The notes: generated by a model from the letters alone, not told the origin. 64,000 nucleotides of DNA from Acidobacteriota bacterium (GCA_013289955.1 JABCYZ010000019.1:28090-92089), one strand, 5' to 3'; shown: positions 1 through 56,741, counted from the first letter of the stretch. Translations and numbers: made by a program.

Positions 1-213
1 CTTCCATTTCGGATCAGAGTCCGGAAAATGTGTGCCGATGTCTCCAAGGCCAGCCGCGCCGAGGAGTGCGTCGCAGAGCGCATGCGCAAGTACATCGCCG
101 TCGGAATGCCCTACGGAGCCTTTCTCAAACGGGAGCTCGATCCCGCCGACAATGAGCTTCTGACCTTCCGCGAGACGATGAAGATCGTACCCAATCCCGC
201 ACCGCACGCTCAT
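1..213 (-). CDS. ispF: 2-C-methyl-D-erythritol 2,4-cyclodiphosphate synthase, 5' part (runs off window)
   Basis: Manual translation from ATG at 213: [71 protein letters not shown]. IspF motifs GxDxH, HSDGD and GDIG. ATGA overlap with the ispD stop. Absent from the ORF track. Confidence 0.97.
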
Positions 214-926
214 GCTTTGTGACGCTCTTGTTCAAGGTAGAAGCGCGCAAGGTCCATATCGGCGGGCCTCGTGATTTTGATGTTACGCTCCGAGCCGAGC
301 ACAACGTGCACGTCGTGCCCGATGCGCTCGACGAGCCCAGCCTCATCCGAAGCGTTGACGCCATCGGCTTGCGCGCGCGCGAACGCTTCCTTGATCAGTT
401 TCATCGAGAACGCCTGCGGCGTCTGCGCCAGCACCACACGCTCGCGCGGAATCGTCCCGATAATCAGAGCGACATCTTCCGGCAAGCTGGCGCGCTTCAC
501 TTCCTTGACCGTATCCATCGCGGGAATGCCAAGAATCGCTGCCTGGCAACGCCGTGCTTCTTCGATCACGCGGGCGATCTGCTCGCGAGTAACGAAAGGC
601 CGTACGGCGTCGTGCACCAGCACAATTTCCGTATCACTAGAAACTTCCTTCAGCGCCAGCGCCACCGAATCCTGCCGCGAATCGCCGCCCCGCACCACCC
701 GGACCGTCTGCATAAATCGTTCGCCGCGGATGCGCTCTTCAAGCGACTCGACCACGTCCGCGCGCGTCGCTACAATAATATCGGTGACCAGGGGACAAGA
801 GGCGATCCTCCGGACGCTATGAATGACGAGCGGCGTCCCCTCCAACTCGAGAAACTGCTTGGGGGTTTCGGCGCCCATGCGCGTGCCGAGACCTGCGGCT
901 GGAAGAATGGCAGCTATGCGGCTCAT
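210..926 (-). CDS. ispD: 2-C-methyl-D-erythritol 4-phosphate cytidylyltransferase
   Basis: [31 protein letters not shown] and NIKITRP motifs. Likely start ATG 926 (ORF track extends to 989). Confidence 0.97.
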
Positions 927-52653: not shown

Positions 52654-52704
52654 TGTCCGAATTCGGACATCCCCACCTAACCGCAAAGCCCGTTTCCTGT
52701 CTAA
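52654..52704 (+). promoter_or_regulatory. 16-bp perfect palindrome plus candidate ECF promoter ahead of the sigma gene
   Basis: TGTCCGAATTCGGACA (52654-52669); AAC(52679)-N17-GTCTAA(52699). Confidence 0.5.
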
Positions 52705-52712
52705 TGATTCAG

Positions 52713-53405
52713 ATGAGCGAAAGCGCCGGAAGCACCCAAGACCGCGAGGCACTCCGGAACGCGGCCCGAGAAAGCGATGCCATCGCCGTGGAGCGCACGC
52801 TCGCCGGCGAGCGCGATGCTTTCCGAGTGCTGGTCGAGCGGCACAGCCAGCAGCTCTTCCGCCTGGCGTATCGCATGACCGGAAATGAGCATGACGCCGA
52901 GGAAGTGGTGCAAGAAGCTTTTCTCAGAGCCTATCGGAATCTCGGGCAATTCGGTTCGCGCGCGAATTTCGGCACCTGGGCGTACCGCATCGCCGCGAAT
53001 TACGCGATTGACCGCATGCGCCAAAAGCGTGTCGAGGATACGCGGCGCCAGACGCCGAGCAGCCTGGCGGAAGAGCAGGAGCAGGATCCCTTGGATTTGG
53101 TGCCGGACGAACGGCCAACTCCGGATCGTCTGGCGGGCAACACCGAGCTGAGGAAAAAGATGGAAGAGGCGTTAAAAGAGTTGAGCTCGTCGGAGCGGAC
53201 GGCGTTCGTGATGCGCCATTGGGAGGGCTGCGCGATCGAAGAGATCGCCGCGGTGCTGAAATCGACGACGAGCGCGGCGAAGAACACCGTTTTTCGTTCG
53301 GTACAGAAATTGCGGCGAGCGCTAGAACCGTATGTGGGAGCGCGGGGCCGGCTAGAGGCAAAAGCAGCCTGCGCGGCGCCGGAACCCAGGGGCACAGAAC
53401 TATGA
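52713..53405 (+). CDS. ECF RNA polymerase sigma factor
   Basis: Region 2 DAEEVVQEAFLRAY..FGTWAYRIAAN; region 4 ERTAFVMRHWEG..IEEIAAVL. Start 52704 or 52713. Confidence 0.95.
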   Translation: MSESAGSTQDREALRNAARESDAIAVERTLAGERDAFRVLVERHSQQLFRLAYRMTGNEHDAEEVVQEAFLRAYRNLGQFGSRANFGTWAYRIAANYAIDRMRQKRVEDTRRQTPSSLAEEQEQDPLDLVPDERPTPDRLAGNTELRKKMEEALKELSSSERTAFVMRHWEGCAIEEIAAVLKSTTSAAKNTVFRSVQKLRRALEPYVGARGRLEAKAACAAPEPRGTEL

Positions 53406-54193
53406 AACACCTGACAGAAGAAGAATTGATTGGCTATCGAGAGGGGGAGACTACGCAACGCGAAGCTATTGCCGAGCATTTGACGAGCTGCACCGCCTGC
53501 CGCACCGAGCTCGAGCGCATCGAAGCCGTGCTGAGCGCGCTGGATCATCTGCCTGTTCCCGAACGCGGCCCGGAGTACGGGCGCGCCGTGTGGCAGCAAA
53601 TCGCGCCGCGGCTTCCGGAAAGAGCAGGACGGGGTTGGCGTACCTGGCTCGAACCGCGCCGTTGGGTGGCCATCGGCGCAATGGCGGCCATGGTCGTCGC
53701 GGCGTTCGTCGCAGGCCGCTGGACGAAAAAACCCGATGCCGGCCCTATGGCCGCCAGCGTGGCGCAAGTTCGCGAACGCGTGCTGGTCGTGGCGGTCGGC
53801 GACCATTTGGGCAAATCAGAAATGGTGTTGATGGAACTGGCGAACGCTGCGCCGCCCGCCTCCGGGCCAAAGCAGATCAATATCTCGGCAGAACAGCAAC
53901 GAGCGGAAGATTTGCTGGATGCCAATCGCCTGTACCGCGAAACGGCCGAGCAGAATGGCGATCGAGCGCTGGCCGACGTTCTGGATGACCTCGAGCGCGT
54001 GTTAATGGACGTAGCCCATAGCCCGCAAGAAATTACGCCGGCGAAACTGGAATCGCTGCAGAAGCGCATCGAGGCGCATGGCATTTTGTTCAAAGTTCGC
54101 GTGGTCGGCAAGGAATTACAAGAAAAGCAGAACAAAACGAATTCCGCGCCAGCACAGACGGAATCGAAAGCAAGAGAGAGGAACAAGGCATGA
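53402..54193 (+). CDS. Zinc-binding (ZAS, HxxxCxxC) single-pass membrane anti-sigma factor
   Basis: HLTSCTAC; TM WVAIGAMAAMVVAAFVAG; helical C-terminal domain; ATGA coupling on both sides. Confidence 0.88.
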   Translation: MKHLTEEELIGYREGETTQREAIAEHLTSCTACRTELERIEAVLSALDHLPVPERGPEYGRAVWQQIAPRLPERAGRGWRTWLEPRRWVAIGAMAAMVVAAFVAGRWTKKPDAGPMAASVAQVRERVLVVAVGDHLGKSEMVLMELANAAPPASGPKQINISAEQQRAEDLLDANRLYRETAEQNGDRALADVLDDLERVLMDVAHSPQEITPAKLESLQKRIEAHGILFKVRVVGKELQEKQNKTNSAPAQTESKARERNKA

Positions 54194-55557
54194 GCATCGG
54201 AGAACGGACAAGCAGAGCGGTAAGAATCTGGGCGATCGCGGCGGGGTTGGTGATCGCGCCGTGGATGGCGAAGTCGGCAGTGGCCCATGGCTCTCGAGCG
54301 GCGAGCGACTCCTGGCAGGAACAGAGCAGCGCTGACCGTGAGCAGGAAGCCCGTGATCGCGAGCAGGAGAAACGCGACCGCGAAGAAGAAGCGCGCGACC
54401 GCGAACAGGAAAAGCGCGATCGCGAGCAGGAGCGGCTCGAACGGCTCGACGAACTCTACAGCGACGGCCGCGAGGCTCTCGACGAAGACCGCTACGACCG
54501 TGCCGCCGAGAAATTCAGCGAGCTTGCGTCGTTGAACGGCCCCCAGACGGATGCGGCGATGTATTGGAAGGCCTACGCCGAAAACAAGCTGGGCAAGAGA
54601 GACTCCGCGCTGGCCACGATTACCGATTTGGAGAAGAAATACGCGCAAAGCCGGTGGATAAAGGACGCCAAGGCGCTTGAAATCGAAGTCCGGCAATCGA
54701 ACGGGCAGCCCGCGCACCCTGAATCCCAGCCCGACGAAGACCTGAAAATGCTGGCCATCACCGGACTGATGAACAGTGATCCCCAGCGAGCCATGCCGTT
54801 GCTCGAAAAAGTGCTGAACGGTCCCGGCACCCCCAAGGAAAAGTCCAAGGCGCTTTTCGTGCTCGCACAAAACGGCTCGTCGCAATCGCGCGAAATTCTC
54901 GCACGCATTGCCCGCGGAGAGAGCAATCCGGACCTGCAGCGCAAAGCCGTCGAGTATCTGGGAATGTTCGGTGGACAAGAGTCGCGGCAAACGCTTGCGG
55001 CGATTTATGCGTCCACGAACGATGTCTCGGTGAAACGCGCCATTCTTCGCAGCTACATGGTCGGCGGCGACAAGGAGCACCTCTTTGCCGCGGCCAAGGG
55101 CGAGAAGGATGCGTCGCTGCGCGCGGAAGCGATCCGCCAGCTGGGCATCGTTCACGCACCGGAAGAATTACGCCAGCTTTATGCGGCCGAGACTACGCCC
55201 GAAGTGAAAAAGGACATCCTGCAGGCGTTCTTCCTCTCCGGCGACGCAAAATTCCTCGCAGAGGCAGCGCTGGGCGAAAAGGATCCGGAGATTCGCCGCA
55301 CAGCGATCCGCAATCTGGGTCTGGTCGGTTCTGCGGAGGCCAAGGAAGCGTTGCTGGCAATCTATGCGAAAGAGACTGACCGCGAGAACAAGGAGACAGT
55401 GCTCAACGCACTCTTCATTCAAGGCAACGCGCACGCGCTGGTGACGATTGCGCGAGGCGAAAAAGATCCGCAGCTTAAGAAGACGGCGGTCTCCAAACTC
55501 GCGTTGATGAATTCGAAAGAAGGTAACGATTATCTGATGGAGATTTTGCAGAAATAG
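54190..55557 (+). CDS. Exported protein: charged helical repeat + TPR + HEAT repeats
   Basis: Signal peptide; (R)DREQE(K/A) repeats; TPR-like AAMYWKAYA..KYAQSRW; HEAT units such as LQRKAVEYLG, LRAEAIRQLG and IRRTAIRNLG. Confidence 0.82.
   Translation: MSIGERTSRAVRIWAIAAGLVIAPWMAKSAVAHGSRAASDSWQEQSSADREQEARDREQEKRDREEEARDREQEKRDREQERLERLDELYSDGREALDEDRYDRAAEKFSELASLNGPQTDAAMYWKAYAENKLGKRDSALATITDLEKKYAQSRWIKDAKALEIEVRQSNGQPAHPESQPDEDLKMLAITGLMNSDPQRAMPLLEKVLNGPGTPKEKSKALFVLAQNGSSQSREILARIARGESNPDLQRKAVEYLGMFGGQESRQTLAAIYASTNDVSVKRAILRSYMVGGDKEHLFAAAKGEKDASLRAEAIRQLGIVHAPEELRQLYAAETTPEVKKDILQAFFLSGDAKFLAEAALGEKDPEIRRTAIRNLGLVGSAEAKEALLAIYAKETDRENKETVLNALFIQGNAHALVTIARGEKDPQLKKTAVSKLALMNSKEGNDYLMEILQK
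54334..54438 (+). repeat. 5 x 21-bp in-frame tandem repeat encoding DRE(Q/E)E(A/K/R)(R/L)
   Basis: gaccgtgagcaggaagcccgt / gatcgcgagcaggagaaacgc / gaccgcgaagaagaagcgcgc / gaccgcgaacaggaaaagcgc / gatcgcgagcaggagcggctc. Confidence 0.85.
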
Positions 55558-55622
55558 CTCACAGACGGATGACCTGCGGCTCGCGACTCTGGCAGTTCAG
55601 AAAGAAATGGAGTGAGGCGGAT

Positions 55623-56741
55623 ATGAAAACGTGGCACAGGATCTTGCTCGGGCAAACCATTCTCGGAGCGGTGCTATTTGCCTGCGGACCGTTGCTTGCG
55701 CGGCAGTCGGCGGAAACCCCGCAAGTGGTGAACGCAAAAATCGAAACGCGAGCAGTGAACGGATCTCTCGGGGCGACTCTCGAGAGCATCAAAGCGCAAG
55801 CGGACAAGCCGGAATGGGTCGGCTACAGCGTCGCCGAAATTACGGGCGACCGCACGGTGTGCTGCGGAAACTTCAACGATAGCTACGGCGGATGCGGCAC
55901 TTGCCGCCTCGAAAAGGAAAACGGCGTCATCGGCACGACCACGCCAAAAGACGCAACCGGCGGAACGGTCGAACTGGAGGGCTCGCGCCAGCTCGTCGTC
56001 CTCTTCCGGCTGGAAGGCAAACAGGTGATGCGCATTCGCGAAGCCTCGGAAAATTGCACGCTGGACGCAGGTGGCCTGCCGTTTATCTGGCTCACCGGCG
56101 TGAAACCTCGGGAGAGCGTGGCGCTGCTCGCCGATTTCGTCCACAAGTCAAGTTTTGAAGGTCATGGCGAACACGAAATTGGCCAGGGTGCGTTGTCGGC
56201 AATTGCCCTGCACGCGGACTCCTCAGCCGACCGAGCGCTCGAGTCATTCGTCGCCGCCGATCAGCCGGAACAGTTGCGCAAACACGCTTCCTTCTGGCTG
56301 GGAGCCTCGCGCGGCAAATCCGGTGAGGTGTTGTTAGAGGAAATGGCGAAGAGCGATCCGAGCCCCGAAGTTCGCTCGCAGGTGGCGTTCGCGCTCTCGG
56401 TGAGCCACGAGCCCGAAGCGCTCAATGAAATGATACGCATGGCCAAAGACGACAAGAGCACACACGTGCGCGGCCAGGCGCTCTTCTGGCTCGCGCAGAA
56501 GGCAGGGCAGAAAGCCATGGGCGCCATCACCGGCGCGATCGAAAACGATCCCGACACCGAAGTAAAAAAGAAAGCCGTTTTCGCCCTAAGCCAGATGCCG
56601 AAAGACGAGGGCGTGCCGAAACTCATCGAAGTAGCCAAAACCAACCGCAACCCCGAAGTGCGGAAGCAAGCCATGTTCTGGTTAGGACAGTCCAACGATC
56701 CGCGCGCGCTGGACTTTTTCGAGCAAGTGCTGTCTCGCTAG
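55623..56741 (+). CDS. Exported HEAT-repeat protein with a Cys-rich N-terminal domain
   Basis: Signal peptide; VCCGN..GCGTC; HEAT units LRKHASFWLG, VRSQVAFALS, VRGQALFWLA, VKKKAVFALS and VRKQAMFWLG. Confidence 0.82.
   Translation: MKTWHRILLGQTILGAVLFACGPLLARQSAETPQVVNAKIETRAVNGSLGATLESIKAQADKPEWVGYSVAEITGDRTVCCGNFNDSYGGCGTCRLEKENGVIGTTTPKDATGGTVELEGSRQLVVLFRLEGKQVMRIREASENCTLDAGGLPFIWLTGVKPRESVALLADFVHKSSFEGHGEHEIGQGALSAIALHADSSADRALESFVAADQPEQLRKHASFWLGASRGKSGEVLLEEMAKSDPSPEVRSQVAFALSVSHEPEALNEMIRMAKDDKSTHVRGQALFWLAQKAGQKAMGAITGAIENDPDTEVKKKAVFALSQMPKDEGVPKLIEVAKTNRNPEVRKQAMFWLGQSNDPRALDFFEQVLSR

Follow-up and report, generated by a model that had tools for sequence, protein, structure and literature searches.

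A conserved acidobacterial operon that joins an ECF sigma factor and its membrane anti-sigma factor to two HEAT-repeat proteins, probably the periplasmic partners and output of an uncharacterised envelope signalling loop

Four genes and their products

The stretch of DNA that was analysed (the window, 64,000 nucleotides) comes from a soil acidobacterium. Between 52713 and 56741, its plus strand encodes four co-oriented ORFs in the order ECF sigma factor, single-pass anti-sigma factor, and two HEAT-repeat proteins, called here HEAT1 and HEAT2 (Table 1). ATGA overlaps, read directly in the sequence, join the sigma gene to the anti-sigma gene and the anti-sigma gene to HEAT1. HEAT2 starts 65 nt past HEAT1. 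The longer HEAT2 of the gene-caller, beginning at 55569, was considered less likely; a GGAG Shine-Dalgarno sequence lies ahead of the start at 55623. Across loci, the sigma and anti-sigma genes overlapped by 4 nt at 63 of 81 junctions, and the anti-sigma and HEAT1 genes at 41 of 87; between HEAT1 and HEAT2 the gap had a median of 41 nt. Inside the operon region, no sigma-70-like promoter or terminator signal above background was found. Together the four genes make up a single, conserved and translationally coupled unit. A literature search found no paper describing an operon of this composition.

Table 1. Positions of the genes, protein regions and upstream elements in the window
Feature	Nucleotides	Residues	Strand	Remarks
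Palindrome TGTCCGAATTCGGACA	52654..52669		.	perfect, 16 bp; just upstream of -35 element
ECF-type promoter	52675..52705		+	extended -35 ACCTAACCGC (52675-52684), 11-nt spacer, extended -10 CCTGTCTAAT (52696-52705)
Gap from -10 to ATG	52706..52715		+	7 nt to ATG at 52713; no Shine-Dalgarno
ECF (group 4) sigma factor, SigW/RpoE-like	52713..53405	230 aa	+	Pfam, TIGR02937 and PDB matches
Single-pass anti-sigma factor	53402..54193	263 aa	+	class-I ZAS domain, TM helix, periplasmic domain
ZAS motif	53477-53500	H26-x3-C30-x2-C33	+	plus invariant H3
TM helix	about 53663-53722	about 87-107	+	one hydrophobic 19-mer
Anti-sigma periplasmic domain	53723-54190	155 residues	+	some residues invariant
HEAT1	54190..55557	455 aa	+	HEAT_2, sub-threshold TPR matches; no cysteine
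HEAT1 signal-peptide-like N-terminus		1-32	+	heuristic
HEAT1 E/R-rich charged stretch		about 47-86	+	
HEAT1 TPR-like region	54448-54669	87-160	+	below Pfam cut-offs
HEAT1 HEAT solenoid		about 180-455	+	Pfam HEAT_2
HEAT2	55623..56741	372 aa	+	HEAT_2, AF2 model
HEAT2 putative signal peptide		1-26	+	heuristic
HEAT2 alpha/beta N-domain	55710-56162	30-180	+	
HEAT2 Cys loop	55860-55904	C80, C81, C91, C94	+	further cysteine C145
HEAT2 HEAT solenoid	56178-56738	186-372	+	

The sigma factor matched Pfam Sigma70_r2 (5.8e-22, residues 40-106) and Sigma70_r4_2 (7.5e-10, residues 149-200). Regions 2 and 4 were the only ones found by Pfam, without region 1.1 or 3, which is the composition of ECF group 4. 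TIGR02937 (sigma70-ECF) scored 110.5 bits against a cut-off of 42.9, and no equivalog cut-off of NCBIfam was reached. The best PDB sequence matches were SigW (5wuq_A, 7.1e-25), AlgU (6in7, 2.1e-24) and RpoE (1or7, 2.9e-20).

The HxxxCxxC motif of the anti-sigma factor was found in 84 of 87 orthologues, and H3, H26, C30 and C33 were invariant in the alignment A3; in the orthologue L173 the motif is lost, yet the whole operon is kept. When the A3 profile was searched against the PDB, it matched RsiW (5wuq_C, 6.9e-7), RslA (3hug_B, 0.0022), ChrR (2q1z_B, 0.0056) and DdvA (0.0086). The single sequence reached only E=0.067 with Pfam zf-HC2. By its motif and its relationship to solved anti-sigma domains, the protein belongs to the class I ZAS anti-sigma factors, and as judged from sequence the sigma/anti-sigma pair is SigW/RsiW-like. 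It may be noted that the ZAS motif leaves space for a cytoplasmic redox input. The periplasmic domain matched nothing in the PDB or Pfam. The genome also encodes an RseP-type site-2 M50 metalloprotease, a 447-aa ORF with HEWGH located after dxr (G000 C6).

Both downstream products are HEAT-repeat proteins. Pfam HEAT_2 matched HEAT1 at 3.8e-22 and HEAT2 at 1.1e-20, and the bit scores of the two (78.8 and 74.2) lie above the cut-off of 27.7. Residues 87-156 of HEAT1 gave matches to TPR_16 (24.6 bits, cut-off 32.7), YfiO (20.9, cut-off 25), TIGR03302 (21, cut-off 81.4) and TIGR02795 (18.1, cut-off 90.1), and also to TPR_19 below the Pfam cut-off. This region looks TPR-like, without support for membership of the BamD or YbgF families. 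The E/R stretch is lineage-specific; other HEAT1 orthologues have a Gly-rich spacer or none in its place.

HEAT2 was modelled with AF2 at a pLDDT of 81.2 for the full-length protein and 80.7 for the N-domain alone, and the model has 13 paired helices at residues 186-371. By Foldseek, the HEAT part alone matched PDB folds, e.g. alphaRep (5e-7); for the N-domain, the best E-value against PDB folds was 0.09, with TM scores of at most 0.21. A profile of the N-domain also found no match in the PDB or Pfam, and a search of 1.84 billion proteins returned 868 representative matches. Hence no relative of known structure or family could be detected for the N-terminal Cys-loop domain of HEAT2. Its C81, C94 and C145 are conserved in at least 95% of cases. 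Some distant orthologues (L172, L179 and L180) lack HEAT2 cysteines, so universal Cys-based sensing by HEAT2 is unlikely. The operon's most conserved stretch is residues 281-360 of HEAT2, with an identity (0.82-0.89) above that of sigma regions 2 and 4; such constraint would be compatible with a fixed protein-protein interface.

Export was assessed by a heuristic consisting of a hydrophobic 10-mer scoring at least 1.8 in the first 45 residues, a basic n-region and AxA-like sites. It was satisfied by 78 of 90 HEAT1 and 85 of 97 HEAT2 orthologues, the failures being mostly start-codon misassignments. No twin-arginine motif was found at either N-terminus. HEAT1 and HEAT2 gave no match to MucB_RseB; only HEAT and TPR families were recovered, and the folds matched by HEAT2 were those of alphaRep and HEAT proteins. 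Any likeness to RseB and MucB is one of proposed function.

Much of what a sequence-only reading of this locus had described was recovered in these analyses, namely four co-oriented genes with the first three ATGA-coupled, a cytoplasmic HxxxCxxC followed by a single TM helix (one hydrophobic segment), and a Cys cluster on the second HEAT protein. The signal peptides that it assigned to both HEAT proteins are signal-peptide-like by the above heuristic. For HEAT1 it had proposed a solenoid with a TPR and a charged helix; the solenoid and the charged stretch were found, but the TPR matches stayed sub-threshold.

Promoter, distribution and regulon

Directly upstream of the sigma gene lie an AAC-containing -35 element and a GTC-containing -10 element, the AAC and CGT/GTC pattern of ECF promoters, which are usually autoregulated. 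The layout is ACCTAACCGC-N11-CCTGTCTAAT-N7-ATG, with the core AAC-N17-GTC. Sixty-six related loci carry the motif, 63 of them with a common spacing. Among these 63, the motif is near-invariant, with at most a few substitutions per position, and the spacer and upstream DNA vary. In distant families, CTAAC..N..(C/T)GTCTAA was found at 10 of 17 loci and near variants at 4 more. A near-invariant ECF-type promoter ahead of the sigma gene implies autoregulation, and we infer that the promoter is used by the operon's own sigma factor.

Almost all orthologues, those of distant families included, have GTCTAA at a distance of 8 nt from the ATG. An upstream ATG at 52704 shares nucleotides with the -10 element, and other loci do not conserve it. 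The promoter lies so close to the start codon that the sigma mRNA would be leaderless or nearly so, the transcription start being a predicted one. Apart from the window, the palindrome was seen in its nearest relatives alone (L030, L031 and L064, with an imperfect copy in L035); it was absent in other loci and is probably not part of the conserved module.

All four genes were present and identically ordered at 14 of 14 same-genus loci and at each of about 80 further related loci with enough contig. In distant Acidobacteriota families, at 30-55% identity, the order was kept in 17 of 20 loci. The arrangement is therefore far beyond chance; flanking genes are shared only among members of the same taxonomic order. 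The anti-sigma periplasmic domain occurs in 74 of 401 Acidobacteriota genomes, and 10-18% of the sampled genomes of the phylum carry the module. When sampling was centred on the anti-sigma factor, a HEAT1-like gene was found downstream in 19 of 20 loci, which makes HEAT1 a near-obligate neighbour of its anti-sigma family. A HEAT2-like gene followed in about half of these loci, so HEAT2 is accessory; HEAT2 also occurs alone, without the sigma pair, in two genomes.

In a genome-wide PWM scan, the operon's own promoter scored 30.9 bits, compared with 19.9 for the next match. The latter precedes a gene for an exported beta-lactamase-family protein, at a locus absent from relatives. Carrier genomes contain about one strict promoter match each, and additional matches were no commoner than those of a reversed-pattern control. 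The motif was thus found to be convincing only at the operon itself, although targets with weaker promoters would escape such a search. Consequently, the HEAT proteins are the only visible output.

These data bear on three further claims of the sequence-only reading. That the HEAT genes would be conserved with the sigma pair is borne out strongly across the phylum. Their treatment as a pair needs correction, since the two are not equivalent. That they act as a sensor is an incomplete description, since they are the visible output as well. Many other HEAT-repeat ORFs are encoded in the source genome and its relatives, and for this reason the idea that HEAT repeats are mostly cytoplasmic lends weak support to any surprise at the putatively exported ones.

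A proposed signalling loop and its alternatives

Our preferred reading, which we hold tentatively at a probability of roughly 0.45, is that the HEAT proteins bind the anti-sigma periplasmic domain as negative co-regulators and are at the same time the induced output, in a loop like those of CpxP and RseB. At rest, the sigma factor would be kept at the membrane by the zinc-motif domain of the anti-sigma factor. HEAT1 would cap the anti-sigma periplasmic domain and HEAT2 would dock through its extremely conserved C-terminal repeats, and this capping would shield the anti-sigma factor from site-1 and site-2 proteolysis. The HEAT proteins would be titrated off the anti-sigma factor by damage or by a ligand arising from the envelope, and this cue, sensed at the HEAT2 Cys loop, might be thiol-reactive, redox or metal in nature. 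The uncapped anti-sigma factor would then be degraded and the sigma factor would transcribe its own operon, whereupon fresh HEAT proteins would handle the ligand and re-silence the system.

It is also possible, though on balance unlikely, that the anti-sigma factor senses by its own periplasmic domain and that HEAT1 and HEAT2 are sigma-induced effectors without feedback, such as periplasmic binding, chaperone or scaffold proteins. Effector genes inside ECF operons are known, and B. subtilis sigV-rsiV-oatA would be a precedent for an operon with its own effector. The restriction of the promoter motif to the operon, which leaves the HEAT proteins as the only visible induction products, is in keeping with such a role, as is the occurrence of HEAT2 without the sigma pair. 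On the other hand, the anti-sigma periplasmic domain and HEAT1 have stayed together through deep divergence, in 19 of 20 loci, their genes often meet in the 4-nt overlap more typical of stoichiometric partners, and the Pfam and TIGR/NCBIfam models identify no enzymatic domain and no known binding domain in either HEAT protein.

The nearly universal HxxxCxxC, its invariant residues and the relationship to ZAS proteins would also suit a cytoplasmic switch in which the zinc site senses thiol oxidation, as in RsrA and RshA, with the HEAT proteins outside the input. We consider this improbable. In RsiW and other membrane-bound ZAS proteins, zinc is structural and control is by proteolysis, and RsiW is the closest relative here. 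Moreover, L173 has the whole operon without the motif, and such a switch would leave unexplained the conserved TM helix and a periplasmic domain of 155 residues with invariant positions. Very improbable, in our estimate, is a role of HEAT1 and HEAT2 as periplasmic scaffolds of an outer-membrane or cell-wall machine whose level is tuned by the sigma pair without a dedicated signal. The matches of HEAT1 residues 78-160 to BamD/YfiO and YbgF TPR models would point that way, as would the very high conservation of the HEAT2 C-terminus, but these TPR matches are generic and fall below curated cut-offs. Occurrence in just 10-18% of sampled genomes is a poor fit to a core machine, and no envelope-assembly genes are conserved beside the module.

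Among known systems, B. subtilis SigW/RsiW (PDB 5WUQ) is the best solved-structure match for both operon partners. It shares the autoregulated promoter and a single-pass anti-sigma factor with H-x3-C-x2-C and an N-terminal fourth ligand position, which is C3 in RsiW and the invariant H3 in the acidobacterial protein. RsiW is controlled through PrsW and RasP proteolysis. Its periplasmic domain is unrelated to the one described here, however, and no exported HEAT proteins are encoded in the SigW operon. The regulon of SigW is large, but for the acidobacterial sigma factor the searches recovered just the promoter of its own operon. The order of sigma factor, membrane anti-sigma factor and putative periplasmic protein in an autoregulated operon recalls E. 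coli rpoE-rseA-rseB(-rseC) and Pseudomonas algU-mucA-mucB, in which RseB and MucB bind the outer domain of the anti-sigma factor and gate its proteolysis. The sigma factors are related and an RseP-type protease is present, but HEAT1 and HEAT2 are predicted alpha-solenoids without the RseB/MucB fold, and RseA lacks the zinc motif.

Cupriavidus CnrY-CnrX-CnrH is likewise a three-part ECF system in one autoregulated operon, with CnrX as a separate all-helical periplasmic metal sensor acting on the membrane anti-sigma factor. CnrH is only a distant match to the sigma factor (4cxf, 6.8e-11), no similarity was detected between CnrX or CnrY and the acidobacterial proteins, and Cnr drives a separate efflux operon. 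As a functional analogue of the HEAT proteins we propose E. coli CpxP (likewise PspA of the Psp system), an all-helical periplasmic protein that inhibits a membrane sensor and is its most strongly induced output. This analogy draws only on the apparent operon-only regulon; there is no relationship in sequence or fold, and Cpx belongs to the two-component rather than the ECF systems.

It is probable that both HEAT proteins are periplasmic partners in, as well as the output of, a so far uncharacterised loop of envelope signalling. Under the reading that we prefer, it would be a homeostatic loop in which "sensor equals output", unrelated to CpxP or RseB.

Organization and distribution of the operon

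The sequence-only reading had described four co-oriented genes, the first three of them ATGA-coupled, and both ATGA overlaps could indeed be read directly in the sequence. The genes encode a sigma factor, an anti-sigma factor, a HEAT-repeat protein with a TPR-like part (HEAT1) and a HEAT-repeat protein with a Cys-loop N-terminal domain (HEAT2). Overlaps of 4 nt were present at 63 of 81 sigma/anti-sigma junctions and at 41 of 87 anti-sigma/HEAT1 junctions. By reading of the sequence, GGAG precedes the HEAT2 start, which lies 65 nt past the end of HEAT1; the median gap between these two genes in orthologous loci was 41 nt. When a sigma-70-like promoter was sought within the operon region, none was found, and terminator-like hairpins there did not exceed the background. 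The junction statistics are consistent with translational coupling.

Features of the sigma/anti-sigma/HEAT operon and its upstream DNA (window coordinates)
Feature	Position	Strand	Description
Palindrome TGTCCGAATTCGGACA	52654-52669		perfect, 16 bp; 5 nt upstream of the extended -35
Conserved promoter blocks	52675-52684 and 52696-52705	+	from the 69-locus alignment
P0001, sigma	52713-53405	+	230 aa; Pfam Sigma70_r2 and r4_2 only; TIGR02937 above cut-off
P0002, anti-sigma	53402-54193	+	263 aa; H26-x3-C30-x2-C33; one hydrophobic segment, ~87-107; 155-residue C-terminal domain
P0003, HEAT1	54190-55557	+	455 aa; signal-peptide-like N-terminus, E/R-rich stretch, sub-threshold TPR 87-156, HEAT repeats
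P0004, HEAT2	55623-56741	+	372 aa; predicted signal peptide, 150-residue domain, HEAT repeats
HEAT2 residues 281-360	56463-56702		last three HEAT repeats

The four-gene order was kept in all 14 same-genus loci with enough contig, and in all 80 further species-representative loci with sufficient contig among the matches listed. The scan for related loci returned more than 575 among the matches listed. The HEAT2 N-domain was detected in 38 of 401 sampled Acidobacteriota genomes (27 of 228 genera). Twenty of its loci, from many families and with 30-55% protein identity, were inspected; 17 had the complete four-gene order, one was broken by a contig end and two were solitary HEAT2 genes. With the anti-sigma periplasmic domain as the query, 74 of the 401 genomes were recovered. 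In 20 loci centred on this domain, a HEAT1-like gene was found downstream in 19 and a HEAT2-like gene in about half; hence, sigma, anti-sigma and HEAT1 form the conserved core, to which HEAT2 is often added as a fourth member. The HEAT genes are thus syntenic with the sigma pair in distant loci, as the sequence-only reading had asked to be checked. The module occurs in roughly 10-18% of the sampled species of Acidobacteriota. Conservation of the flanks (PadR/ADOP permease upstream, dap genes downstream) did not reach beyond the taxonomic order.

Some loci departed from the common arrangement. In two of them (L071:3510-5945, and L069) a permease gene of the ADOP/MacB type, of 811 aa in L071, separates HEAT1 from HEAT2 and is co-oriented with them, so this junction tolerates insertion. 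In a Terriglobia MAG (L108:2302-6229) the same place is taken by a gene for a third, putatively exported HEAT protein of 305 aa, which is a copy of the C-terminal part of HEAT1. HEAT1 of that locus has a Gly-rich spacer instead of the E/R-rich stretch, which marks the spacer as a variable, lineage-specific linker. In two other genomes (G323:C22:294310 and G403:C27:8657) the HEAT2 N-domain, ~1.3 kb downstream of the anti-sigma match, belongs to open frames of 773-782 aa, which may encode either a fusion of HEAT1 with HEAT2 or an enlarged HEAT2. It may also be noted that six loci (L030, L062, L068, L074, L103, L105) with operons 57-90% identical to that of the window carry the NCBI labels Verrucomicrobiia, Candidatus Cybelea, Eisenbacteria or Limnocylindrales (SMAG series). 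The bins probably belong to Acidobacteriota and are mislabelled, and they give no evidence for a wider range. One member of the sigma cluster of another genome (G298) is labelled Edaphobacter.

The promoter and the targets of the sigma factor

For 69 loci, the 110 nt preceding the sigma start were aligned. The pattern ACCTAACCGC-N11-CCTGTCTAAT-N7-ATG was conserved, and the spacer and the DNA beyond the -35 block were divergent. The core is AAC-N17-GTC, the classical ECF layout. Distant families kept CTAAC...(C/T)GTCTAA, with the ATG 8 nt (range 7-11) after GTCTAA. No Shine-Dalgarno sequence was found between the -10 element and the sigma ATG. An alternative start at ATG 52704 was rejected; it overlaps the -10 element and lacks conservation. 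We infer that the promoter is autoregulated and that the sigma mRNA, starting at ~52711-52713, is leaderless or nearly so.

The palindrome upstream was present in the nearest relatives only (L030, L031 and L064, and imperfectly in L035). Being missing in the other loci, it stands outside the conserved promoter and may serve as an operator specific to this lineage or form a hairpin. A different palindrome, CATAGTCTAACTATG (CATAG-N5-CTATG), precedes two PadR-ADOP permease pairs elsewhere in the window's own genome (contigs C11:1196-1223 and C13:53234-53261) and may be a PadR operator.

Targets were searched with strict, relaxed and PWM patterns in the window's own genome and 24-40 relatives, with a reversed-pattern control. 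With the strict pattern, carrier genomes of the genus had about one match each, and the ten other sampled genera had none. Additional strict matches were no commoner than with the reversed-pattern control, and the relaxed pattern gave no surplus over it. The two-block PWM scored the operon promoter at 30.9 bits in its own genome vs 19.9 for the next match, below which the scores formed a continuum. Since no second target rose above the control, the operon itself would be the only supported target of the sigma factor on these computational grounds, where motif searches would miss weak promoters.

The second-best PWM match, C3:29506-29533 (CCTAACCGCAA...CGTCTAT, 19.9 bits), lies ~20 nt before a gene for an exported 379-aa serine hydrolase of the beta-lactamase family. 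A counterpart of this locus was sought in six relatives and none was found. Another match, TAACCTATCC-N10-GCGTCTAA at C6:96255-96282, falls within the 3' part of dxr, ~390 nt before a gene for an RseP-type site-2 protease, and five close genomes share it, down to a rare TTA Leu codon. It was considered as a promoter of rseP and rejected because the coding flanks are equally conserved, which points to coding constraint. The match is thus probably not a promoter; rseP may have a sigma-dependent one.

Properties of the encoded proteins

The sigma factor belongs to the ECF class by the membership test applied, and its best solved relatives were SigW (5wuq, 7.1e-25), AlgU and RpoE. The anti-sigma has a ZAS domain by its motif and profile matches. 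A profile of 24 anti-sigma N-termini matched RsiW (6.9e-7), followed by RslA, ChrR and DdvA; H3, H26, C30 and C33 were invariant in it. Sigma and anti-sigma alike are typical of families already known. The cytoplasmic HxxxCxxC noticed earlier was retained in 84 of 87 orthologues, and the single TM helix agreed with the one hydrophobic segment. The periplasmic domain of the anti-sigma had no match in the PDB or Pfam, apart from PDB matches to designed helical bundles, which were dismissed as chance. Its conserved positions are H135, R176, Y178, R179 and E198. Like HEAT1, this domain is without cysteine, as read in the sequence.

HEAT1 and HEAT2 carry predicted export signals, as judged by a sequence heuristic. 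A lipoprotein assignment for HEAT2 (LFAC, residues 18-21) was discarded, the Cys not being conserved among orthologues. Neither protein was found to belong to the RseB/MucB family. A TPR and a charged helix had been claimed for one HEAT protein. The latter stood as the E/R-rich stretch of HEAT1, while the TPR remained sub-threshold, and this part of HEAT1 also fell below the BamD and YbgF thresholds.

The full-length AF2 model of HEAT2 (pLDDT 81.2) consists of an alpha/beta N-domain and 13 paired helices, with low confidence for the Cys loop (residues 83-120). When the model was compared with the PDB by Foldseek, only HEAT and alphaRep proteins were obtained. The N-domain was also modelled alone from 41 diverse sequences (pLDDT 80.7). 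Its fold had no match in the PDB (best E-value 0.09, TM at most 0.21), nor did its profile, and no Pfam family was assigned in any of the 41 members. A search of 1.84 billion representatives with this domain gave 868 proteins, nearly all of ~350-390 aa with the same N-domain and HEAT layout, or fragments. The cysteine cluster noticed earlier in one HEAT protein was located in the HEAT2 N-domain of the window (C80, C81, C91, C94, C145). Among the collected orthologues, conservation of C81, C94 and C145 is at least 95%; most cysteines are missing in three distant HEAT2 proteins (L172, L179, L180). Within the operon, conservation is highest at HEAT2 residues 281-360 (VRGQALFWLAQK..., VKKKAVFALSQ..., VRKQAMFWLGQS...), where the identity is 0.82-0.89, above that of sigma regions 2 and 4 (about 100 orthologues).

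A second case of a HEAT protein beside a transmembrane signalling protein was seen in the same genome (C26:68987-71913), where the gene after that of a Ser/Thr protein kinase (545 aa) encodes a membrane-anchored HEAT-repeat protein (343 aa). No homologue of HEAT1 or HEAT2 occurred within 5-6 kb of the five M56 (BlaR1-type) genes of the genome, and the two solitary HEAT2 genes had no BlaR1-type neighbour.

Possible roles of the HEAT proteins

Our analysis shows an operon that is conserved, translationally coupled and self-promoted. It encodes a SigW/RsiW-like pair and two proteins with predicted export signals, and HEAT1 is a close companion of this anti-sigma family. In the sequence-only reading the exported HEAT pair was a periplasmic sensor or chaperone controlling the anti-sigma. 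Because no output other than the HEAT proteins is visible, a titration loop, in which they would be both restraint and output, reconciles this idea with an output role; we give it a probability of about 0.45. The HEAT proteins would share a compartment with the C-terminal domain of the anti-sigma and bind there, HEAT1 as a cap and HEAT2 docking via its invariant C-terminal repeats. Jointly they would hold back cleavage of the anti-sigma; the genome encodes an RseP-type protease. A periplasmic cue would titrate them off the anti-sigma, the freed sigma would then transcribe its own operon, and newly made HEAT proteins would soak up the cue and return the switch to rest. In function, CpxP and RseB are the nearest analogues; by Pfam and fold searches the HEAT proteins are unrelated to either.

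The main rival gives the HEAT proteins an output role only. It shares with the titration loop the restricted set of supported targets, and the linkage of HEAT1 to one anti-sigma family speaks against it; we regard it as possible but doubtful. A cytoplasmic redox switch acting through the zinc motif of the anti-sigma, whose residues are strongly kept, appears quite improbable, and a structural role of the HEAT proteins as an envelope scaffold more improbable still. In a bolder form of the titration loop, which we hold to be unlikely as a whole, HEAT1 and HEAT2 would together represent a class of co-sensors not recognised before, namely periplasmic solenoids serving SigW/RsiW-like ECF systems. 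The periplasmic domain of the anti-sigma would itself be new, with HEAT1 as its obligate cap, and the HEAT2 N-domain would have a new fold that reads a cue, whether thiol-reactive, redox or metal. As both sensor and only output, the pair would form a self-contained periplasmic buffering circuit, expressed from a leaderless, self-activated sigma mRNA.

In agreement with the sequence-only reading, no paper on an ECF system with exported HEAT partners was found by full-text literature searches, and the main text of the ECF re-classification paper makes no mention of HEAT. The module is real, widespread in Acidobacteriota and uncharacterised, and is an elaboration of the familiar theme of ECF sigma, anti-sigma and periplasmic partner.

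Among the classes of bacterial signal transduction, ECF sigma factors rank third by size. To our knowledge, the sensed signal and the accessory proteins of most ECF groups are unknown, above all in Acidobacteriota, which dominate many soils and are hard to grow. The promoter is conserved and specific enough for a reporter to be built straight from the sequence, and the conserved, probably leaderless arrangement is relevant to translation initiation in this phylum. The periplasmic partners of anti-sigma factors form a short list, namely RseB, CnrX and the lipoprotein CseA. If the HEAT proteins are sensors, alpha-solenoids would join this list, a family of ~870 cluster representatives with an unassigned domain would receive its first function, and the operon would provide a clear case in which an ECF circuit has its own sensor as the only output.
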